DNA of 64,000 nt, taken from contig CAVUZH010000013.1 of the NCBI GenBank assembly GCA_963745835.1, positions 384,001 through 448,000 of the forward strand, written 5' to 3'. Numbering within the stretch: the stretch's first letter is position 1; every line of letters starts with the position of its first letter. The stretch comes from an uncultured delta proteobacterium. GTDB taxonomy: Bacteria; Desulfobacterota; Binatia; UBA9968. Shown here in pieces: positions 6,660 to 59,317 of the stretch. Under the pieces are notes generated by a model. The model was not told where the DNA came from, searched no databases, and saw only the letters and a program-made list of their open reading frames with translations. The position numbers were made by a program, and so were the translations under genes.

Positions 6660-8126
6660 CTATTTCAGCAGATAGCCAAATTTCTCACGAGCCATCCTTA
6701 CTACTTCCTGGCTCGGCGTGTTGACCATGGGAAACTTATCCTTCCATTCGTAGGGTCGGGTCGCATCGACTACCATTCGGGAGTTGGTAAAGTCTCTTTT
6801 CTTGCGCTGTTCGGGAGTAAGTCGAGGATCGGCAGGAGTGCTGCGCATGCGGCGCAAAATGTCTACGGAGGTTTCCGGATCGTAGCGCGACAGCATTGCC
6901 CACATCAGCTGGTCCAAATTCGATACGTCGATATCATCGTCCACCACGATCACCATCTTGCAACCGTAAACGCTGGCGCCGCAACTTGCCGCCAAGGCGC
7001 CAACCTGTTTGGCGTGACCCGGATATCGCTGTTGAATGGCCAGCGCGATCAGCATTCGAGATGCGCCGATCTCATGGGCCCATACCTGCCTTACGTCGGG
7101 AACGCCGGCGCTCTGGAGTTGTTGTTTGAGCATGGCCGAACGCATGATCGCGCGATAACGCGCCATTTCGTCCGAGCCGCCGCCGATCGGCGGCACACCG
7201 AGAATGATCGGGTCGTTGCGGTGATAAACGGATTCAATCTCCAGCACCGGCTGCGCGCTTTCATCCGATGCATAATAGCCGGTCCACTCCCCGAACGGGC
7301 CCTCGTTCTTGCGATTGTCGTTGTTTAAGTATCCTTCGAACACAATTTCCGCACTGGCGGGAAACGGTAAGCCGGTGAGCGGGCCGCGCACGACCTCTAC
7401 CGGTTTGCCTCTCATTCCGCCGACGATGTCATACTCGCAGAGGCCGTACGGATGTTCGGTGCCTGCCATGAAGAAAAACAGCGGATCACCGCCAATAACC
7501 AACGCCAATGGCATCTTCTGACCGCGCTTGAAATATTTCTCGCGATGCATGTAGCCATGCTTGCCTGGCACCATCAGCAGGCTGACGGTTTTTGCGTCCT
7601 GGATCATCGCACGGTAGCAACCGACGTTAATCCACTTCTCGTCCGGGTCGATGGTCACTGAGTAACAACCTGTGCCGATATACCGGCCGCCGTCATTCAC
7701 ATGCCACACCGGGGTTGGAAACTTCATGATATCGACATCGCCGCCCTTGACGACATTTTCGAAAATCGGCCCATCCTTTACAAAGACAGGCGGCATATGA
7801 TTGGGAGTTTTCTGAAAATGATCGAAGTAGGCTTGGCTCAATTCCTGTTTGGACAATCCTTGGGGAAAGCCGAAGGTCATGGCGCGACGTTTGCCGGCAA
7901 AAGCGTTGATCAAGATGCGGAACCCTTTGGGACAGCCGGGCACCTCGTCGAAAACCACTGCAGGTCCATCGTCGGGAGGAACAACGACATCCGTGGCCAA
8001 GCCGATGTCCTTCTGCCAGGACGCGCCAAAAACGGTTTTCAACTCACCCAGCTTTTCAGCTTCGCGCATCCATTCGCGCAGGTCGGTAAAAGCAATATGC
8101 GGCTGAATCTTTGAGCTGTCAAACAT
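6660..8126 (-). CDS. UbiD-family prFMN-dependent (de)carboxylase
   Basis: DLREWM, DGGRYIGT, EGPFGEWTGYY, VVDDDIDV, VDATRP. Confidence 0.92.
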   Translation of the reverse strand: MFDSSKIQPHIAFTDLREWMREAEKLGELKTVFGASWQKDIGLATDVVVPPDDGPAVVFDEVPGCPKGFRILINAFAGKRRAMTFGFPQGLSKQELSQAYFDHFQKTPNHMPPVFVKDGPIFENVVKGGDVDIMKFPTPVWHVNDGGRYIGTGCYSVTIDPDEKWINVGCYRAMIQDAKTVSLLMVPGKHGYMHREKYFKRGQKMPLALVIGGDPLFFFMAGTEHPYGLCEYDIVGGMRGKPVEVVRGPLTGLPFPASAEIVFEGYLNNDNRKNEGPFGEWTGYYASDESAQPVLEIESVYHRNDPIILGVPPIGGGSDEMARYRAIMRSAMLKQQLQSAGVPDVRQVWAHEIGASRMLIALAIQQRYPGHAKQVGALAASCGASVYGCKMVIVVDDDIDVSNLDQLMWAMLSRYDPETSVDILRRMRSTPADPRLTPEQRKKRDFTNSRMVVDATRPYEWKDKFPMVNTPSQEVVRMAREKFGYLLK

Positions 8127-8368
8127 TATCGCTCCTTGCAAAGGTTTGAATCACGCTCAATCTAACATAGTTGTCGTACCCAATGGAACGGCTCTGGCGG
8201 AGAGAAAATACCAATGATTTCACCGTGTATTGTTCCACTGAAGGAAGTGCGGCATTGGTTCTTCATATCCGAAACTCTCATCGCGGCGTTGCTTGAGGAT
8301 GGAACGAAGCACGAACGCGGAGCCTCCGGATATATTTGCAGACTAACCAACCCCGTGAAGCAAGCGCA

Positions 8369-9196: not shown

Positions 9197-9523
9197 CTAG
9201 GATCTCCATTGCATACGAGGTGTCATTGGATTATCCCAATGTTTTCGATGGTTCAAACGGTTTATGACATACGCGATAAATCAACCCGTTCGGTCGGCGG
9301 CTACTCTGCGCTTATTGGTTGGTTTTGCACATCTTAGGATCGGCTGGAGTCTAGTGGTCGATATTGCTTTGACTCTAGCGCACGGCTTAGGTGCGGCCCC
9401 TCTTGACGAGGCAGCTCAGGTTGATGTGACCGACTCCGATCAGCTAATCTCCGGCAGAATAGCGGATTGACTGAAATACGCGTTCAGAGGCTTATGATAT
9501 GCAAGGAAAAGAGGACATGTGAA

Positions 9524-10534
9524 ATGAAGACCCTGAGTGTCGTGATTGCATTACTGCTGGGATTCGCTGAGTTGGCGGTTGCCCAAGATTCGTTCTTCAA
9601 AGGCAAGACCGTGCGGATCGTGGTGCCGTTCGCTGCTGGGGGCGGCTACGATATCTATTCCCGGATTATGGGCCGGCACATGAGTAAATACATTCCCGGC
9701 AACCCGGTTTTCGTGGTTGAAAACATGACCGGCGCGGGCGGCCTGATCGGCATTAACCACGTCTATAAAGCCGCCAAACCGGACGGCCTCACCATCGGCA
9801 CGCCGATTGGCACTATGTTTGTCGATCAACTCATCGGCAAACCTGGTATAGAATTCGACGGCCGCAAGTTCGAGTATATCGGCGCGCCGGCGCAGGACAC
9901 GCAACTGCTGATCGTGCACAAGCGCACCGGCATCAACAGCGTCGAACAATGGTTATCGCATCCAACACCGGTGAAATTCGGCAGCACCGGGCCGGGATCA
10001 GCCAACGAATCGATTCCGAAGATTGTCAAAGAGGCGCTAAACCTGCCGCTACAAGTTGTTTCCGGCTATAAAGGCAGCTCGGTCATCCGTCTGGCATTTA
10101 CCGGAGGCGAGGTCGACGGCGTCGCCAATGCCTGGGAATCAATGGTCTCGACCTGGCCCCAAGAACTTGAGAGCGGCGACGCAGTCATCTTGTTGCAGGC
10201 GTCCGGAAAACGCCACCCGGATTTAACCAAAGTTCCATTGGTTATGGATTACGCAAAAACGGAGATGGCTAAAAAGCTGGTGCGCGGCGTCATCAACAAT
10301 TTCGGCGCTACGGCACGGCCCTATGTAGTGACGCCGGGCACACCGAAAGCGCGTGTGGAAATATTGCGCAAAGCGTTCATGGATACCATGAAAGATCCGG
10401 ACTTTGGAGCTGAGCTTAAAAAGGCGAAATTGGATCTGAATCCACTCGACGGAGCAACCTTGGAGAACAATATCAAAGAGCTGTTCGCATTGGATCAAGC
10501 GCTCATCCCTAAGTTGACAGAGATCTTAAAATAA
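9524..10534 (+). CDS. TctC/Bug-family substrate-binding protein
   Basis: Signal peptide, FFKGKTVRIVVPFAAGGGYD, ENMTGAGG; paralog of 2938..3972. Confidence 0.9.
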   Translation: MKTLSVVIALLLGFAELAVAQDSFFKGKTVRIVVPFAAGGGYDIYSRIMGRHMSKYIPGNPVFVVENMTGAGGLIGINHVYKAAKPDGLTIGTPIGTMFVDQLIGKPGIEFDGRKFEYIGAPAQDTQLLIVHKRTGINSVEQWLSHPTPVKFGSTGPGSANESIPKIVKEALNLPLQVVSGYKGSSVIRLAFTGGEVDGVANAWESMVSTWPQELESGDAVILLQASGKRHPDLTKVPLVMDYAKTEMAKKLVRGVINNFGATARPYVVTPGTPKARVEILRKAFMDTMKDPDFGAELKKAKLDLNPLDGATLENNIKELFALDQALIPKLTEILK

Positions 10535-10589
10535 GAAAGGATCGACACCGGGTTTGCATCATTTGGAGCCACAGTAGAAGGAGCCAACC

Positions 10590-11657
10590 ATGATTGTCGA
10601 TGCTGATGCCCATGTGGTCGAGACCGAACACACCTGGGATTATCTCGATGCTTCCGAAAAGAAATTCCGGCCTCAACTGTTTCAATCGGCCGACAATCCC
10701 AATGCGCAGTATTGGTTCGTCGAGGGCAAATCGATCGGCTTTCGCCCCCCGACCTTGACCGAACAAGAGCTGATCGCGCTTTCCAAGTCTACCGGCCGCG
10801 AACTCAAAACAGCCCCGGAGGCCCGTGAGCTCCGCGATGTCGAGCTGCGCTTGAACCACATGGACAAGCTGGGCATCGATGTTCAGATCCTGTTCAACAC
10901 CATGTGGATTGCCCGCGTTGCCGACAAGGCTGAAGCAGAGATTGCACTTTGCAAATCCTGGAATCATTGGATGGCCGATCTCTGGAAGCAAGGTAAAAAC
11001 CGTCTGCGCTGGTCGTGCGTCGTCCCGGCAATGACCATTAACGAGGCGATCCAGCAGATGCGCTTTGCTAAAGAGAACGGCGCGGTTGCGGTGAGCCTGC
11101 GCCCTTTCGAAGACGATAGGCACCTCGTCGATCCCTACTTCTATCCGATCTACGAGGAAGCGACCCGTTTGAATTTTGCGGTCGCGGTTCACATCGCCAA
11201 TGGGAGCCCGCAGCTCCTGGACCAGTTTAAACCGCGTTATGACAGAATGGGCGGCTTCGCGCAATTTCGTATCCCTACGGTAATCACCTGTTTGTCTTTG
11301 ATGATGAGCGAACTGCCGCAGCAATTTCCGAAACTGCGCTGGGCTTTCGTCGAAGCCTCGGCTCAATGGGTGCCGTGGGTTGTCAAGGAAGCGATCCGTC
11401 GGACCGGCACCAAAGGATTTCCCGATCTGCCTTTCAAGGAATTTCGGATCTACGTCACTACAGAAACAAATGATGACTTCGATTTCGTGCTGCGCTACGC
11501 CGGCGAAGATAACCTCGTCATAGGCACCGATTACGGCCATACCGATGCGTCGAGCGAAGTGGACGCCCTCGATATTTTCCGGGCAAATGATTCATTGCCA
11601 GAGACGATCAAGAAGAAGATCCTAGACGATAATCCGCGCGCGCTATACACCTTGTAG
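10590..11657 (+). CDS. Amidohydrolase_2 family protein (ACMSD/LigW-like)
   Basis: IVDADAHVVE, FYPIYEEA..AVAVH, FPKLRWAFVEA, GTDYGH. Confidence 0.88.
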   Translation: MIVDADAHVVETEHTWDYLDASEKKFRPQLFQSADNPNAQYWFVEGKSIGFRPPTLTEQELIALSKSTGRELKTAPEARELRDVELRLNHMDKLGIDVQILFNTMWIARVADKAEAEIALCKSWNHWMADLWKQGKNRLRWSCVVPAMTINEAIQQMRFAKENGAVAVSLRPFEDDRHLVDPYFYPIYEEATRLNFAVAVHIANGSPQLLDQFKPRYDRMGGFAQFRIPTVITCLSLMMSELPQQFPKLRWAFVEASAQWVPWVVKEAIRRTGTKGFPDLPFKEFRIYVTTETNDDFDFVLRYAGEDNLVIGTDYGHTDASSEVDALDIFRANDSLPETIKKKILDDNPRALYTL

Positions 11658-11705
11658 ATCTTTTCGAAGGTCCGCACCGGCCGTCGCGATTAACCACACC
11701 GATTG

Positions 11706-13076
11706 ATGCCCAAGGATCTACGCAGCTTTATCGCTGAATTAGACGCTACTTCACCCGAAGATGTAGCGCGGGTTACCAAACCGGTCTCGCCGCGCTATGA
11801 GATGTCCGCGATTCTCACCCATCTGGAAAAGCGCAAACGCTTTCCACTGCTGTTTTTAAAAAATTCCAATAATGGACAGGCGCCGGTTGTGATCAACGCT
11901 CAGGCTAGCCGCCGGCTCATGTCCATCGCCTTAGAATGTAAGCCGGAAGACTTAGCGCGCGCATTTAGCGAGCGACAATCAAAACCTTTAGCGCCGGTGG
12001 AGATGATCAACGCGCCGGTGCACGAAATCTCCAGAACCGGCGATGAAATCGATTTAAACGAAGTGCCGCTGCTGACCCACTATGACGTCAATGTCGCTCC
12101 TTACATCACCGCCGGTATCGTCGTAGCAGTCGATCCGGATACGGGAGTGCGCAATACGAGCTATAACCGGCTAATGATGGCAGGCAAACGCGAGCTGAGA
12201 ATCTTCATGGCCGTCGGCAGGCATCTGTGGACGCTGCACAACAAGCTTGAGCGCCGCAACCAATCGCTGCCCATCGCCATCATCATTGGTGTTCACCCTC
12301 TTTTTTCTCTGGGAGCACAAGCGCTCACGCCAGCGGATGAAGACGAGTACGCCGTCATCGGCGGCATGATGAACGAACCACTTCGTCTCGCACGAGCGAA
12401 AACGGTTCCGATTCTCGTGCCCGCGGATGCTGAGATGATTATAGAAGGCCAGATCATGCCGAACCTGCGTCGTCTCGAGGGCCCATTTGGCGAGTTTACC
12501 GGTCATGCCGTGCCGCAGGACCAACGGCAAGTCATTGAAGTCACCGCTATTACCCACCGCGACAATTACATTTTTCAGGACATTCATGCCGGGTATACCG
12601 AGCATAAATTGATGGGCGCGGTGCCGCGCGAAGCGGCTCTGTTGAAAGCGGTTCGCCTGACGGTTCCTACAGTCACGAATGTGTGCATGCCGGTGTCGGG
12701 TAATTGCCGCTTTCACGCGTACATTTCGATCGCTAAACGAACGCCGGGTCAAGCCAAAAACGCCATATGCGCGGCGTTCGCTGCCGATATGCTGCTTAAA
12801 CACGTGGTGGTGGTCGATGACGACATCGACGTCTTCGACGAGGAACGGGTTCTGTGGGCAATCTCCAATCGCTTTCAGGCGGATCGCGGGCTGGTGGTCA
12901 TTGCAAATGCTCAGGGCAGCGAACTTGATCCCTCCGCTAACCCGGGAGGTGTTAACGCCAAAATGGGTCTGGACGCAACCAAACCGCTCACTGGATTTCC
13001 GCCGGAACTCAGAGTGCCGGAAGAAGTTTTAGAAAAGATCAGCCTCGACGACTTCCTTCCTGATTTCGCAAAATGA
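11706..13076 (+). CDS. UbiD-family prFMN-dependent (de)carboxylase
   Basis: DLRSFI, PYITAG, NTSYNRL, EGPFGEFTGH, VVVDDDIDV, KMGLDATKP. Confidence 0.92.
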   Translation: MPKDLRSFIAELDATSPEDVARVTKPVSPRYEMSAILTHLEKRKRFPLLFLKNSNNGQAPVVINAQASRRLMSIALECKPEDLARAFSERQSKPLAPVEMINAPVHEISRTGDEIDLNEVPLLTHYDVNVAPYITAGIVVAVDPDTGVRNTSYNRLMMAGKRELRIFMAVGRHLWTLHNKLERRNQSLPIAIIIGVHPLFSLGAQALTPADEDEYAVIGGMMNEPLRLARAKTVPILVPADAEMIIEGQIMPNLRRLEGPFGEFTGHAVPQDQRQVIEVTAITHRDNYIFQDIHAGYTEHKLMGAVPREAALLKAVRLTVPTVTNVCMPVSGNCRFHAYISIAKRTPGQAKNAICAAFAADMLLKHVVVVDDDIDVFDEERVLWAISNRFQADRGLVVIANAQGSELDPSANPGGVNAKMGLDATKPLTGFPPELRVPEEVLEKISLDDFLPDFAK

Positions 13077-13107: not shown

Positions 13108-13137
13108 TAACCCCGGTTCGGCTGGGGTTAAAATTTT
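13108..13137 (+). terminator. Candidate intrinsic terminator after ubiD-like gene
   Basis: TAACCCCGG-TTCGG-CTGGGGTTA hairpin followed by an AT-rich tract. Confidence 0.5.
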
Positions 13138-13190: not shown

Positions 13191-13220
13191 TTGACAGGGC
13201 GATTCATCATCGGCTAACCT
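13191..13220 (+). promoter_or_regulatory. Candidate sigma70 promoter of the amidase-actin operon
   Basis: TTGACA-N18-TAACCT about 50 bp upstream of the amidase start. Confidence 0.45.
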
Positions 13221-13271
13221 TGCACATCTTCGATCCTTTCTTTGAATGATCAGTCAAGCTACCTCAGTCGA

Positions 13272-14282
13272 ATGGCCAGCATAGAGCAGGACAAACTCCG
13301 CCTCCTCAGGGGCGCAGTCCAAGACAACGTTGACCTGCTGCGCGGAATCCGAACCCATACTCGGAGCCGCCATCGAAAAATCGAAGGACCCTGGATATGG
13401 AGTCCGTTTTTACTAGCCGTTCTCGCAATTCTCTGGCAGGCTTCGCCGGTCATCTCGACCAGGCCCACGGCTACACCACAGGATGCCAAAGCGGACACCA
13501 AACAGGCTCAAGCGATGGCTCAATTCGGTGCGCTGGAAGTTCAAACACCGGCACTCACGCCGCATCCGCTCGATCGCGCGGTTATTCCGCTCGGGGTTAA
13601 GAGAATCGTCATCGATGCCGGTCACGGCGGCAAGCAGCCGGGGGCGATATCCGAATCCGGTGTCTCCGAGAAGGACATCACCTTGGACATTGCGCTCCGT
13701 GTGCACCGCCTCCTTGACAACGCGCCATTCGAAGTCTTGATGACGCGTCAAGATGACCGAACTATGACGCTGGAGAAAAGAGTCGCGTTCGCTAACTCGA
13801 ACCGAGCGGATCTTTTTATTTCAATCCATATCAACTGGACCGAACCGCGCGAGATTCGTCCGTTGGAAACCTACTTCGTCGGGCCCAGTGACGACCCGGC
13901 AACGATTAAATTGGCGAGCATGGAAAACCAGGAATCCGGCTATTCATTATCGGAGTACCGACGGGTGTTGGAAAAAATCTATATCGATACGCGACGCGAT
14001 GAATCTCGCAGTCTGGCCAAGAACATCCATGCAGAATTGTACCAAGCCCTCAAAGCGGTAAATCCGACGCTGGACAATCGAGGTGTTAGAACGGCGCCCT
14101 TTTTAGTTCTCGTCGGCACGGAGATGCCGGCTATACTCCTCGAAGTCTCGAGCCTGTCAAACGAAGAAGAAGTAGAGTTGTTGATAGACCCCGATTACCG
14201 GGAAAAAATCGCGCTGGCGGTATCCAGAGGAATTGGCAGCTACGCGAGCAATCTTAATAGGTCAGCTGAGAAAGGTAGCTAA
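13272..14282 (+). CDS. N-acetylmuramoyl-L-alanine amidase (Amidase_3) with N-terminal membrane segment
   Basis: RIVIDAGHGG, SEKD, MTRQDD, LFISIHIN, APFLVL..MPAILLEV; all Zn/catalytic H-E-H-E residues present; hydrophobic WIWSPFLLAVLAILW segment; alternative TTG start at 13242. Confidence 0.92.
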   Translation: MASIEQDKLRLLRGAVQDNVDLLRGIRTHTRSRHRKIEGPWIWSPFLLAVLAILWQASPVISTRPTATPQDAKADTKQAQAMAQFGALEVQTPALTPHPLDRAVIPLGVKRIVIDAGHGGKQPGAISESGVSEKDITLDIALRVHRLLDNAPFEVLMTRQDDRTMTLEKRVAFANSNRADLFISIHINWTEPREIRPLETYFVGPSDDPATIKLASMENQESGYSLSEYRRVLEKIYIDTRRDESRSLAKNIHAELYQALKAVNPTLDNRGVRTAPFLVLVGTEMPAILLEVSSLSNEEEVELLIDPDYREKIALAVSRGIGSYASNLNRSAEKGS

Positions 14283-14288
14283 ACGTCA

Positions 14289-15320
14289 ATGGAAGAAACA
14301 AATGATACACTTTGCGTCGGAATCGATCTCGGCACCTCGCGGAGTTCCATTTCGGCATCCAACGGCGAGCGCCACGTAATCGACAGTTATGTCGGTTGGC
14401 CGCTCGATATGGTCGCGCGCAAGCTGATCCAAAAACCGATTCTTGTCGGTCGTGAAGCATTGGATAGTCGTTCGATGCTGGATCTTCGCCGTCCCATGGA
14501 GCGCGGCTTGATCAAGGATGGATCAAAAAAGGACGAAGAAGCCGTCCAGGAGATCCTCCGGCATTTGATCACGCAGACCGGCTTGAAACAGAAAAATAAG
14601 ACGCGTTCAAAGGTTCGCGCCGTGGTCGGCGTGCCCGCGGAGGCTTTCAGGAATAGCAAACAGCGCTTGCGTAGTGCCATGGAGGGGGTGGCCGACAGCG
14701 TCATGTTGGTGTCCGAACCCTTCGCTGTAGCGTACGGATTAGAAGCTTTACTGCACGCCCTTATTATTGATATCGGTGCGGGAACGGCTGACTTTTGCGT
14801 GATGCAAGGGCGTTATCCGACCGAGGAAGACCAAAGAACCTTACCCAATGCCGGCGACTCGATTGACGAACAACTGCTGAAATTAGTGCGCGAGCACCAT
14901 CCCGAAGCGCAAACTTCGATTCATATGATTCGTGAATGGAAGGAGAAATGGAGCTTTGTCGGTGAGGCGAAACAACCGGTTTTAGTTTCTGTTCCGGTCA
15001 AGGGGAAGGCCACCGATTTGGATGTCACCGCGGAGATGCGCGCCGCCTGCGAAAGCATCTTAGCGCCCGTTTGTGAAACCATGTTGGACCTGCTCACCAG
15101 AGTCGAGCCCGAATACCAAGCGAAGGTTCGCAATAATGTTATTCTCGCCGGCGGCACTTCGCTCATCGTTGGACTGAGCCAAGCAATTGAGCAGGCGCTG
15201 GCCGAGCTCGGTGGCGGCCACGCCACGGTTGTTAAAGATCCGGTTTTCGCGGGTTCCGATGGCGGCCTGGCGATCGCCCAGGATGCATCGAGCTCGGATT
15301 GGGAAAAGTTGTCACTTTAG
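14289..15320 (+). CDS. MamK-like bacterial actin
   Basis: GIDLGTS, VVGVPA, VSEPFAVAYG, IIDIGAGTADFC, PTEEDQRTL..AGD.IDE, KEKWSFVG, PEYQAKVRNNVILAGG, VKDPVFAG, DWEKL follow MamK (as recalled) more closely than MreB. Confidence 0.85.
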   Translation: MEETNDTLCVGIDLGTSRSSISASNGERHVIDSYVGWPLDMVARKLIQKPILVGREALDSRSMLDLRRPMERGLIKDGSKKDEEAVQEILRHLITQTGLKQKNKTRSKVRAVVGVPAEAFRNSKQRLRSAMEGVADSVMLVSEPFAVAYGLEALLHALIIDIGAGTADFCVMQGRYPTEEDQRTLPNAGDSIDEQLLKLVREHHPEAQTSIHMIREWKEKWSFVGEAKQPVLVSVPVKGKATDLDVTAEMRAACESILAPVCETMLDLLTRVEPEYQAKVRNNVILAGGTSLIVGLSQAIEQALAELGGGHATVVKDPVFAGSDGGLAIAQDASSSDWEKLSL

Positions 15321-15471: not shown

Positions 15472-16218
15472 CTAATCGCGAATTGCCAGCGCGCCGCCAT
15501 CGACAGGCAGGTCGATGGCGTAGATGAACTCGGACTCATCTGAGGCAAGAAATACTACGGCTTTGGCAATATCCATCGGAACGCCGCGCCGGCCAGCCAA
15601 GTTTTTGACGAAGCGATTTTCCGGAACTTCTTCCTGACCAACAGGCGAGCCGATTCGATTCGGCGATACCGAATTTACGCGAATGCCTTCCGGCGCCAAT
15701 TGCACCGCGATCGATCGGGTGAGATTAAGCACACCCGCTTTGGCGGTGGTGTAGGCCGTCGCTTCCTTACGTCCCCAATGGCCTGAGGTCGAAGCGATGT
15801 TGATGATCTTGCCTTTGCGCTTGTGATCGATCATCACCTTGGCAGCCGATCGCGTACAGTACCACACGCTCCTAAGGCACACGTTCATGACACGGTCCCA
15901 CTCTTCTTCGGTAATATCGAACAAGGTTTTGTGATCGGTCCAAGCGGCGTTGTTGACCAAGATGTCGATAGCGCCAAATTGCTTCACTACCGTCTGAACC
16001 ATTTGATCTACCGAATCAGCCGATGCGACATCGCATACGACCGAGATAGCCGACCCTGGCTTGGTCGCGTTGATTTCACTAGCCACACGGCTGCCTCTTC
16101 CCTGATCGAGATCGACTACCGCCACCTTGGCGCCTTCATGAGCAAAAAGCTTGGAGACGTCTTCACCGATATTGCGCCCTGCGCCGGTAACCACCGCGAC
16201 TTGATTCTGCAGTCTCAT
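15472..16218 (-). CDS. Short-chain dehydrogenase/reductase
   Basis: TGAGRNIG, DILVNNA, YTTAK, IRVNSVSP, VDGG. Confidence 0.93.
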   Translation of the reverse strand: MRLQNQVAVVTGAGRNIGEDVSKLFAHEGAKVAVVDLDQGRGSRVASEINATKPGSAISVVCDVASADSVDQMVQTVVKQFGAIDILVNNAAWTDHKTLFDITEEEWDRVMNVCLRSVWYCTRSAAKVMIDHKRKGKIINIASTSGHWGRKEATAYTTAKAGVLNLTRSIAVQLAPEGIRVNSVSPNRIGSPVGQEEVPENRFVKNLAGRRGVPMDIAKAVVFLASDESEFIYAIDLPVDGGALAIRD

Positions 16219-16326
16219 CGTTTCCTCCATCATCAATTTTTCTGCTGAATAACAGAACCTAGATTAAAGGTCCAGCTACCGGGAGGGACTACCGACTAAA
16301 GAAGAGCTAAGGGAGGAGCGATCTGG

Positions 16327-57886: not shown

Positions 57887-59317
57887 ATGAGCGCTCTTGA
57901 AATCGGCCGCCCCCCCAGACGCGCTGCCTTGCCCGGCAATCTTCTTGTTGTTTTACTTGTCGCAGGTCTGATCGCGGGTGGATACTTTCTCATTCCGCGC
58001 TTTGAATGGAAATCCCCGCAGATCAAGCTCACTCCTGACGCGGAAACCCTTGGGCTTGGCGATCTTGAAATTGATATCAGCGAGCAAGGCACCGGTTTAA
58101 AATCTGTCAGCGCTTCTCTCACCGCCGGCGGCAAAGAGCATTCTCTGGCTGCGGAAGAATACGATCAGCCGTTGATGCAGAAAAAGATTACTATCGCGCT
58201 ATCCTCGAAGCTAACCGGCCTCAAGGAAGGGCCGGCGATTTTGCGCGTTAGCGCCCGTGATCGATCGTTATGGAGTTTTTTTCGGGGCAACGAAACCGTG
58301 CTGCAAAAAAACCTGACGATTGATATCACGCCGCCGACCATCGAGCTGATTGCCGATGACGCCTACGTCAACTTTGGCGGCACCGCACTAGTGGCTTATA
58401 AACCCTCAGCAGACACGGTCAGCACCGGCGTAAAGATTGGTCATCATTTTTTTCCCGGATACAAGGGGCAAACAAAAGATCCCAGCATCTATCTGGCTTT
58501 CTTCGCTCACCCTTACGACACACCGGAGACCGAGAAAGCAACTCTTGTGGCCACCGACAAGGCCGGCAATGCCCGACAGATGGCGCTTGGCTATACACTC
58601 AAGGGCGTTAAGTACAGGAAGAGCACGATTCCGGTTTCAGAGGAGTTCATTAACGGTAAAGTCGCGCCGTTGATCAATGATGTGGGTGCCCGGCAAGGCA
58701 GCGCCAAGGAACTGTTTGTCAAGGTGAACCGCGACATTCGTAAAGAGAACGAGGACAAGATTAAAGCGGTCACCCAAAAAACCGCAGGCTCGATGCTCTG
58801 GAGCGGCCCATTTAACCAGCTAACCAATTCCAAGGTTGAAGCGAACTTTGCCGACGCCAGGACGTACGTTTATAAGAACGAGACCATCGACCATGCGTAT
58901 CACCTGGGCTTTGATCTGTCGGTCACCAAGAGATATCCGGTGGAAGCCGCCAACAGCGGTGTTGTGGGTTTCATCGGTGATTTAGGAATTTACGGAAACA
59001 CCGTGATTCTCGATCACGGCTTGGGGCTTGCGACGCTTTATTCACACCTGAGCTCCATCGACGTCAAACCGGGTGAGCAAATCAAAAAGGCACAAATTCT
59101 CGGCAAAACCGGTGAAACCGGCTTGGCAGTCGGCGATCACCTGCACTACGGCGTCTATTTAAACGGCATCGCCGTGCTGCCATTGGAGTGGTGGGACGAG
59201 AAATGGTTACGTGACAACATATATCCCAAGCTCCAGTCTTCCACTGCCGAGAGCGATGTTGTAGCAAAAGCCGAAGCCAAGCCTGCCGCAAAAAAAACCA
59301 GCCGCCGTCGGCGCTAG
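57887..59317 (+). CDS. M23 family peptidoglycan endopeptidase
   Basis: N-terminal TM, HLGFD, YGNTVILDHG, LYSHL, HLHYG. Confidence 0.92.
   Translation: MSALEIGRPPRRAALPGNLLVVLLVAGLIAGGYFLIPRFEWKSPQIKLTPDAETLGLGDLEIDISEQGTGLKSVSASLTAGGKEHSLAAEEYDQPLMQKKITIALSSKLTGLKEGPAILRVSARDRSLWSFFRGNETVLQKNLTIDITPPTIELIADDAYVNFGGTALVAYKPSADTVSTGVKIGHHFFPGYKGQTKDPSIYLAFFAHPYDTPETEKATLVATDKAGNARQMALGYTLKGVKYRKSTIPVSEEFINGKVAPLINDVGARQGSAKELFVKVNRDIRKENEDKIKAVTQKTAGSMLWSGPFNQLTNSKVEANFADARTYVYKNETIDHAYHLGFDLSVTKRYPVEAANSGVVGFIGDLGIYGNTVILDHGLGLATLYSHLSSIDVKPGEQIKKAQILGKTGETGLAVGDHLHYGVYLNGIAVLPLEWWDEKWLRDNIYPKLQSSTAESDVVAKAEAKPAAKKTSRRRR

Follow-up and report, generated by a model that had tools for sequence, protein, structure and literature searches.

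A MamK-like actin gene linked to the gene of an AmiA-type amidase in Binatia and other bacteria: a candidate cytoskeletal cell-wall module

To our knowledge, only a few bacterial actins have a known job, namely MreB, FtsA, the ParM-like proteins and MamK. In the ParM-ParR and MreB-RodZ systems, the bacterial actin recognises a short segment of its partner, which links the filament to the object being moved or organised. Many MamK-like sequences occur outside the magnetotactic bacteria, and among these BeeR alone has a known structure and none has a known function. The present analysis concerns a two-gene unit in a stretch of 64,000 nucleotides (hereafter the window) from an uncultured delta proteobacterium of the Binatia lineage UBA9968 (GenBank assembly GCA_963745835.1, contig CAVUZH010000013.1, positions 384,001 to 448,000 of the forward strand), in which the gene of an Amidase_3 protein directly precedes the gene of an actin of the MamK superfamily. 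A full-text literature search, with subscription journals outside its coverage, yielded no description of an amidase-linked MamK-type actin; the single paper in which both terms occur deals with another subject.

The closest working analogue of the pair, judged by comparison of the parts, is the BacA-LmdC system of Hyphomonas neptunium and Rhodospirillum rubrum. In the available part of the report on that system (PMC10945521), the bitopic M23 endopeptidase LmdC is held by the bactofilin BacA at its conserved N-terminal cytoplasmic tail, with a dissociation constant of ~15 µM; the two genes form an lmdC-bacA operon, and the system affects cell shape. As far as that part goes, both systems are two-gene units with the hydrolase followed by the polymer, conserved in many species, and both hydrolases appear to be bitopic, with a short conserved cytoplasmic tail, one transmembrane helix and a periplasmic zinc hydrolase domain; the polymer is bound through this tail, as shown for LmdC and predicted for the amidase. 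The systems differ in that the window polymer is an actin-fold ATPase, whereas BacA is a nucleotide-free bactofilin, and in that the window hydrolase is an Amidase_3 amidase, whereas LmdC is an M23 endopeptidase. Moreover, the tail of the window amidase is predicted to be helical, in contrast to the beta-hairpin of LmdC, and the amidase has no periplasmic coiled coil.

MamK (5jyg/5ljv; NF040964) is the nearest solved structure and the nearest named family of the window actin, with the same length and the nucleotide-site motifs kept. Unlike MamK, however, the window actin falls below the family cut-off, belongs to a separate clade, comes from a genome without Mam genes and has an amidase as its putative partner in place of MamJ or MamY. 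BeeR (8r2n) is, in the available part of its description (PMC11929497), a MamK-related actin of non-magnetotactic Verrucomicrobiota, whose partner and function are unknown and which is the sole MamK-superfamily actin from outside the magnetotactic bacteria characterised so far. The window actin shares this setting, but it scores only 215.2 bits on the BeeR model (NF053558; cut-off 530) and lacks the disordered N-terminal extension of 30-50 residues found in BeeR, since the match to the BeeR model begins at actin residue 8. In the part of Uzun et al. (2020; PMC7449369) drawn on here, 2,798 MamK-like metagenome matches are given, of which 227 had Mam neighbours and the rest were set aside.

Among amidases, AmiA, AmiB and AmiC (8c2o, 3ne8, 4bin and 8c0j; activators EnvC and NlpD) are the top sequence and fold matches of the window amidase and align with its catalytic domain from end to end, the insert included. 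The window amidase differs in having a predicted cytoplasmic helix and signal-anchor instead of a cleavable export signal or an AMIN domain, in scoring far under the corresponding NCBIfam cut-offs and in coming from a host with another, longer Amidase_3 gene. The insert of AmiA/B/C carries an auto-inhibitory helix, the effect of which is relieved by EnvC or NlpD. LytH of Staphylococcus aureus (7tj4), a membrane-anchored amidase under the control of a membrane partner, is also an Amidase_3 fold match (Foldseek E-value 4.1e-15), but its partner ActH, which is polytopic and acts outside the cell, is a membrane protein and not a cytoplasmic filament. The predicted recognition of a short segment by the actin resembles ParM-ParR and MreB-RodZ, and the binding sites may be alike. 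Unlike those systems, the pair has no centromere, DNA-binding adaptor, MreC/D or RodZ, and the partner of the window actin would be an enzyme acting across the membrane.

The actin and its position beside MamK

The window actin scores 373.6 bits on the MamK model, below the cut-off of 400 and also below the 472-508 bits reached by core MamK representatives, while on two MreB models it scores 69.3 (cut-off 293) and 56 bits (cut-off 365.75). Its best match in the PDB is Magnetospirillum MamK 5jyg (251.7 bits, E-value 9.7e-74), further matches being BeeR 8r2n (137.6 bits) and MreB (44 bits). These values bear out the original prediction of a MamK-type rather than an MreB-type protein. The sequence motifs on which that prediction was based (VSEPFAVAYG, DIGAGTADFC, PTEEDQ, KEKWSFVG, PEYQ and VKDPVF) are all present, except that the supposedly terminal Trp is W338, six residues before the end. 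The SEPF and DIGAGT motifs align with 5jyg and the nucleotide-site motifs are retained; among 42 clade members, D161 is invariant and E143 nearly so (MamK numbering), both of which we take to be nucleotide-site residues of the actin fold. Near-identical actin proteins occur in Candidatus Binatia metagenome-assembled genomes (MAGs) and in soil metagenomes, where the source label is 'rod shape-determining protein MreB'; a separate canonical MreB-like gene is located on host contig 19 (C19).

A family search over 1.84 billion representatives gave 182 clusters at E <= 1e-30. Trees were inferred with FastTree on 135 rows and with IQ-TREE (LG+C20 with posterior mean site frequencies) on 83 rows, the latter leaving out most near-duplicate loci, all fragmentary representatives and the 450-1232-residue proteins with a C-terminal domain, and the two trees agree. 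P0153 (463 bits to 5jyg), P0208 (the 'MamK-like protein' of AMB-1) and P0226 (a Magnetococcales MAG) were used as true-MamK anchors. In the IQ-TREE analysis, the clade of the window actin has a Shimodaira-Hasegawa-like approximate likelihood ratio (SH-aLRT) support of 100, its sister clade around P0124 has 99 and their join has 100, so that the actins of both amidase-linked groups form a single clade. The three anchors fall in another clade (SH-aLRT 96), and the actin does not group with canonical MreB, in keeping with its first assignment. The backbone among the major clades of the MamK superfamily is left without resolution in the tree. The notion of a repurposed MamK is unsupported, since the actin belongs to a distinct amidase-linked clade beside, and not inside, the MamK-anchor clade, and the lack of backbone resolution leaves the direction of evolution undecided.

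Other MamK-like clusters are found in Gemmatimonadota, Verrucomicrobiota, Nitrosomonadaceae and ANME-2 archaea. The archaeal representative P0163 is a MamK-family actin that reaches 370.8 bits on the MamK model; its sources, MAGs of ANME-2 / Methanosarcinales, label it MreB. Representatives with a C-terminal MamK-like domain include the metagenomic P0136, P0137, P0140-P0142, P0145, P0147, P0149, P0151, P0155, P0159, P0164, P0167 and P0168, which are 520-1232 residues in length and carry long N-terminal regions of unrecognised nature.

As MamK is both the top-matching named family and the top-matching solved structure, the pair might be regarded as a remnant or a part of a magnetosome system. 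The host assembly comprises 7.28 Mb in 25 contigs (97.1% complete, 9.3% contamination), the window being on contig 13. A profile search of this genome gave no match to MamI, while MamP (38.7 bits, cut-off 300), MamQ (91, cut-off 250) and MamO (81.5, cut-off 800) remained below their cut-offs at the generic PDZ, LemA and HtrA level also seen in non-magnetotactic control genomes, with the limit that the Mam models may lean towards Alphaproteobacteria. Mam genes are also absent from the conserved neighbours of the actin in 80 loci of named genomes (see below). The genome thus holds no magnetosome island, by these four families, that accounts for the actin, and as the actin clade also stands apart from the magnetosome MamK anchors, a magnetosome origin of the pair appears extremely improbable.

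Conservation of the gene pair

Forty related genomes were sampled, 24 of the window's family and 16 of two other families of its order. The actin is present in 16 of the 24 genomes and in none of the 16, and at 16 of the 17 actin places in the 16 carriers the amidase gene is located directly upstream on the same strand, the remaining place being a second actin copy in G010 (see below); the carriers G018 and G012 are unpublished genomes and no claim rests solely on these two. Among the named genomes, 556 relatives were found with a 12-sequence alignment as the query and the best 80 of these were kept (61-99% identity), their hosts being Binatia, Rokubacteria/Methylomirabilota and Acidobacteriota. 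The amidase gene is directly upstream in 78 of the 80 loci with gaps of 3-199 nucleotides, and the two remaining loci are uninformative, having just 1 and 85 bases upstream. A similar picture was obtained for the sister clade (metagenome loci around P0124, labelled Nitrospira sp.), with the amidase directly upstream in 72 of 80 loci, the other eight having less than 340 nucleotides upstream and hence being uninformative. Of 301 evenly sampled Acidobacteriota genomes, 25 possess a MamK-family actin, which belongs to the window clade in 23 and to the sister clade in 2, and in all 25 the amidase gene is directly upstream. These locus samples overlap in part (L022 = L004, L076 = L007, and L029 lies in G041) and cover the neighbourhoods of the two amidase-linked clades. 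The linkage first seen in the window is thus conserved well beyond close relatives, while within 6 kb of the pair no other open reading frame (ORF) family is shared by more than 10 of the 80 named-genome loci.

Across 42 loci, the pairwise identities of the actin are correlated with those of the amidase catalytic domain (r 0.69; none of 2000 permutations as high), which fits inheritance as a unit, although shared species history would produce the same pattern. In the trees, the Binatia sequences adjoin a group of Acidobacteriota plus Rokubacteria inside otherwise acidobacterial diversity, and this nesting, together with the patchy distribution, suggests that the amidase-actin pair may have spread laterally.

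Such transfer and patchiness might equally be expected of a mobile lysis or partition cassette, in which a phage endolysin is combined with a ParM-like segregation actin, or of a defence system, and the pair does have endolysin and partition-protein matches in PHROGs. These are, however, generic domain matches of 111 and 42.5 bits, the second being a weak ParM-like one, and PADLOC gave nothing meaningful (17.5 bits). In addition, the flanks consist of ordinary chromosomal genes, phage and plasmid genes being absent from the window and from the conserved neighbours in the 80 loci, and the amidase is of the signal-anchored AmiA type rather than a soluble endolysin, which together make a mobile cassette very unlikely. 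As neither PADLOC nor PHROGs yields an assignment of this kind, a defence or phage origin of the pair was rejected. A ParMRC-type adaptor gene was likewise not found, no third gene being conserved by the actin within 6 kb in the 80 loci and the context being chromosomal.

Several individual loci depart from the common arrangement. Genome G010 carries two actin copies, one with an amidase (L020:2537-3760, minus strand) and one without (L016:1501-2532, plus strand), the latter following the gene of a 435-residue polytopic membrane protein. The L020 amidase has 408 residues, and its tail appears to hold the helix motif three times in tandem, with repeats 2 and 3 degenerate. In a Thermoanaerobaculia MAG (L100:8851-11175, plus strand), the amidase frame is open for 775 codons through the actin gene, which lies in a different frame; this could be due to a missing stop, a sequencing error or a high-GC open frame. 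A same-genus genome (L019 / L021; G001:C610:3084-4093) has the actin split into two pieces that overlap (residues 1-198 and 181-343) and contain one internal TGA, reflecting either a frameshifted gene or an assembly error. In four Acidobacteriota genomes with megabase-scale first contigs (G230, G240, G280 and G320), the frame around the actin match extends over 666-726 codons, as either an N-terminal extension or a high-GC open frame.

The amidase tail, its predicted contact with the actin and a proposed mechanism

The Amidase_3 domain (PF01520) of the window amidase scores 166 bits against a gathering cut-off of 27. The AlphaFold model of the protein, based on a 42-row alignment, has a predicted local distance difference test (pLDDT) value of 80.7 and consists of a helix at residues 2-23, a low-confidence loop, a helix at 43-56, a low-confidence linker at 57-110 and a confident catalytic domain at 111-334. 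By the positive-inside rule, the N-terminal tail would be cytoplasmic and the catalytic domain periplasmic, so that a cytoplasmic segment of 40 residues and a transmembrane helix would replace the cleavable signal peptide. The N-terminal consensus of the homologues is roughly M..DRLKRxLLRxAVxEN.D..G, followed by an Arg-rich loop and a hydrophobic segment, and the sister-clade amidases have the same kind of motif. In 42 homologues, K8 is conserved at 95%, V16 at 88% and N19 at 100%; the tail helix shows an entropy of 1.80 bits and a top-residue frequency of 0.56, as compared to 2.55-2.75 bits and 0.34-0.39 in the loop, the transmembrane segment and the linker.

Sequence matches in the PDB cover the full catalytic domain (E. 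coli AmiA 8c2o, E-value 2.2e-24; Bartonella AmiB 3ne8, 4.8e-24), and AmiA and AmiC are the top Foldseek matches, with an E-value of 6.4e-18 and a TM-score of 0.82-0.84 on the target for AmiA. H118, E133, H186 and E291, presumably the zinc ligands and the catalytic Glu of the Amidase_3 domain, are invariant in the 42 homologues, as are E218, N219, S222 and G223 in the insert, whereas chains of the CwlV/CwlD type align just to about residue 205. The NCBIfam equivalog scores are far below the cut-offs for AmiA (98, cut-off 400), AmiC (89, cut-off 700) and AmiB (78, cut-off 532). Mean column identity is 76% for the actin and 45% for the amidase.

The complex of the actin with the amidase tail (residues 1-40) was predicted from alignments of our own. 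The interface score ipSAE was 0.87, 0.87 and 0.86 in three runs, compared to 0.00, 0.46 and 0.00 for the controls; of 157 solved complexes 116 attain the scoring mark, as do 2 of 215 mismatched pairs, rates that hold just roughly because own alignments were used. The runs share at least 92% of their contacts, with a partner pLDDT of at least 66. In the complex model, tail residues 4, 7-8, 10-20, 22-23 and 25 contact three regions of the actin (121-155, 174-176 and 329-341). The contacts in the first region are 121, 124-125, 128, 138-141, 145, 149, 152 and 154-155, among which R121, Q125, R128, V141, Y149 and L154 are invariant in 42 actin clade members; those in the C-terminal helix are 329, 332-333, 337 and 340-341, with D332 and A333 invariant. 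The predicted contacts thus coincide with conserved tail positions and clade-invariant actin residues, and several of them differ in Magnetospirillum MamK (R121/A, Q125/A, R128/L, D332/E, A333/L and D337/Y). We take the site to be the cleft between subdomains IA and IIA, by homology with actin and ParM. Binding of the amidase tail helix to the actin is accordingly supported in silico, and with it the physical side of the link between filament and amidase that had been proposed from the window.

The actin and the amidase could instead be merely co-expressed under a shared envelope-stress or growth-phase regulation, as it is common for neighbouring genes to encode proteins that do not interact. 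The gene order, strand and spacing persist, however, across at least three phyla while all other neighbours change, the cytoplasmic tail is nearly as conserved as the catalytic domain and would need a cytoplasmic partner, and the complex prediction passes its controls; co-expression without contact is therefore considered quite unlikely. Somewhat less remote, though still unlikely, is the alternative that the filament positions some other cargo, such as an inclusion, a membrane structure or the nucleoid, with the amidase serving mainly as a membrane or wall anchor in the manner of the adaptors that tether MamK. The predicted contact would suit an anchor equally well, the actin is by far the more conserved of the two proteins, and MamK and ParM do position cargo according to the available part of PMC11929497. 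Against such a role, no third conserved gene for a cargo or an adaptor is found within 6 kb in the 80 loci, and neither the catalytic residues nor the regulatory insert vary from phylum to phylum, a constancy for which a simple anchor would have no need.

The reading we favour, and consider fairly probable, is that a cytoplasmic filament holds or positions the periplasmic amidase via its tail, as bactofilin does with LmdC. The two genes would constitute a self-contained module of a cytoskeleton and a cell-wall hydrolase. The amidase would be a type-II membrane protein whose cytoplasmic part consists of a conserved helix of ~25 residues and a basic loop; a single transmembrane helix and a disordered linker would lead from there to a periplasmic AmiA/B/C-type zinc amidase domain, which would keep the insert that blocks the active site in AmiA and AmiB. 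The actin, which has no evident membrane-binding segment of its own, would be a cytoplasmic MamK-like ATPase polymerising by analogy with MamK and BeeR, and would hold the amidase helix in its cleft between the SEPFAVAYG region and the C-terminal helix. If the actin binds the tail in this way, the filament would set the position of the amidase along the membrane, and perhaps the timing of its activity, and the amidase in turn would tie the filament to the envelope. The analysis establishes the gene pair, how widely it is conserved, its domain architecture and the constancy of the tail and catalytic residues, and it supports the contact between tail and actin in silico; we infer polymerisation, topology, the spatial control of peptidoglycan cleavage and an outcome in shape, cell separation or local wall opening. 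Thus, of the original proposal that the filament positions wall hydrolysis, the link has gained support in silico, while the specific role (shape, branching, appendage formation or separation) is a guess.

Several observations weigh against this reading. Binding rests on the confidence of one model, and one control pair also attained an ipSAE of 0.46. The cleft between subdomains IA and IIA joins in the longitudinal filament contacts of actins, and hence the tail may bind monomers or filament ends and not the side of a filament; peptide-in-cleft complexes of other actins have been solved, and the score may partly reflect likeness to these structures. The second actin copy of G010 (L016) has no upstream amidase, indicating that the actin does not always need an amidase gene beside it. 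The module occurs in just two-thirds of the sampled genomes of the window's family and in ~8% of the sampled Acidobacteriota, and the window genome and four distant hosts each carry another, longer Amidase_3 gene; from this and the patchy occurrence, the amidase of the module would be an extra, accessory enzyme, the loss of which is tolerated. The promoter and terminator calls for the pair, furthermore, are at chance level (see below).

A further-reaching proposal is that the pair represents a widespread and hitherto unrecognised bacterial actin system in which the helix of an auto-inhibited, anchored amidase plugs the inter-subdomain cleft of the actin in the style of ParR-ParM, that growth or turnover of the cytoplasmic filament moves, clusters or switches on peptidoglycan cleavage across the membrane, and that an actin linked to the wall in this way could be the earlier form, the cargo-positioning MamK of magnetosomes having been recruited from it at a later time. 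Taken jointly, these three statements are regarded as doubtful.

Layout of the locus and its significance

The features of the locus are given in Table 1. The two-gene unit with a gap of six nucleotides was recovered as originally described, the amidase stop codon TAA occupying 14280-14282 and the actin ATG starting at 14289, with GAAAGG about 13 nucleotides 5' of that ATG. An alternative start of the amidase ORF exists at a TTG at 13242 (13242..14282); the ATG at 13272 is supported because in the homologues the conserved N-terminal motif follows the start codon by no more than a few residues. A Pfam survey of 61 ORFs of the window detected genes usual for a chromosome, with none of the Mam, MreC/D or partition families among them, in agreement with the earlier statement that mam, mreCD and par genes are absent from these 64 kb, and the convergent SDR gene downstream was confirmed.

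The signals postulated for an independent transcription unit fared less well. The TTGACA hexamer is present, but the consensus scan makes no promoter call there because no acceptable -10 box follows it, and promoter-like sites in the region (2 against 1.3 expected) are near chance. Similarly, the upstream hairpin with its T-rich tail exists and is possibly a terminator that would separate the amidase-actin pair as its own unit, although terminator-like sites (4 against 3.4 expected in the motif scan) are also near chance frequency. Contigs of RNA libraries (four runs, each of a different study) match parts of both genes with 92-100% identity, leaving the actin gene parts at about 14522-14758 uncovered. 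The contigs nearest to the junction are 14100-14311 and 14278-14517, and none spans 14282/14289 with at least 31 letters on each side; DNA is possible in such libraries.

Table 1. Coordinates of the amidase-actin pair, its predicted functional parts and adjacent features in the window
Feature	Position	Strand	Basis or remarks
Hairpin and T-rich run	13108..13130	+	10 pairs, 5 of them G-C; 3' of the UbiD stop
TTGACA, candidate -35 box	13191..13196	+	Lone -35-like hexamer
Amidase gene	13272..14282	+	336 amino acids from ATG, stop codon counted in; Pfam Amidase_3, E-value 1.1e-48
Conserved N-terminal helix, residues 1-25	13272..13346	+	Model helix 2-23; predicted cytoplasmic actin contact
Basic loop (26-40) and transmembrane segment (~41-62), signal-anchor	13347..13457	+	Model helix 43-56; Arg/Lys-rich columns 29-39
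AmiA/AmiB/AmiC-type catalytic domain, residues 107-334	13590..14273	+	PDB sequence and Foldseek matches; putatively periplasmic
Insert of the catalytic domain, residues 205-240	13884..13991	+	Aligns with the regulatory-helix region of AmiA/AmiB (8c2o, 3ne8)
Six-base spacer acgtca between the amidase and actin genes	14283..14288	+	
MamK-superfamily actin gene, amidase-linked clade	14289..15320	+	343 amino acids, stop codon counted in
Actin residues 121-155, forming one side of the predicted tail-binding surface	14649..14753	+	Complex model
Actin C-terminal helix 329-341, forming the other side of the predicted tail-binding surface	15273..15311	+	Complex model
SDR gene, convergent to the actin gene	15472..16236	-	ORF and Pfam

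The flanks of the module (6663-8141, minus strand, and 9467-13076, plus strand) hold two UbiD-family decarboxylases, an Amidohydro_2 protein and TctC-type receptors; the upstream Amidohydro_2-UbiD pair is kept in several Binatia loci and not beyond Binatia. A 476-residue Peptidase_M23 protein, encoded 43 kb from the module beside a RadC gene (57887-59314, plus strand), is a candidate activator of the module amidase, since proteins of the LytM type activate AmiA/B/C amidases in other bacteria.

The findings point to a route, undescribed in the literature searched, by which wall remodelling could be directed from within the cell. One large group of MamK-like actins gains a concrete, testable partner, and the principle by which a polymer holds a bitopic hydrolase by its tail would apply to actins as well as bactofilins and to amidases as well as endopeptidases. 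As the clade proteins are labelled 'rod shape-determining protein MreB' by their sources, genome-based inference of the shape machinery can be misled. The hosts belong to abundant and poorly known soil and sediment lineages, namely Binatia, Thermoanaerobaculia, Holophagales, Vicinamibacterales and Rokubacteria, and some features of how cells of these lineages are shaped or divide may be due to the module.

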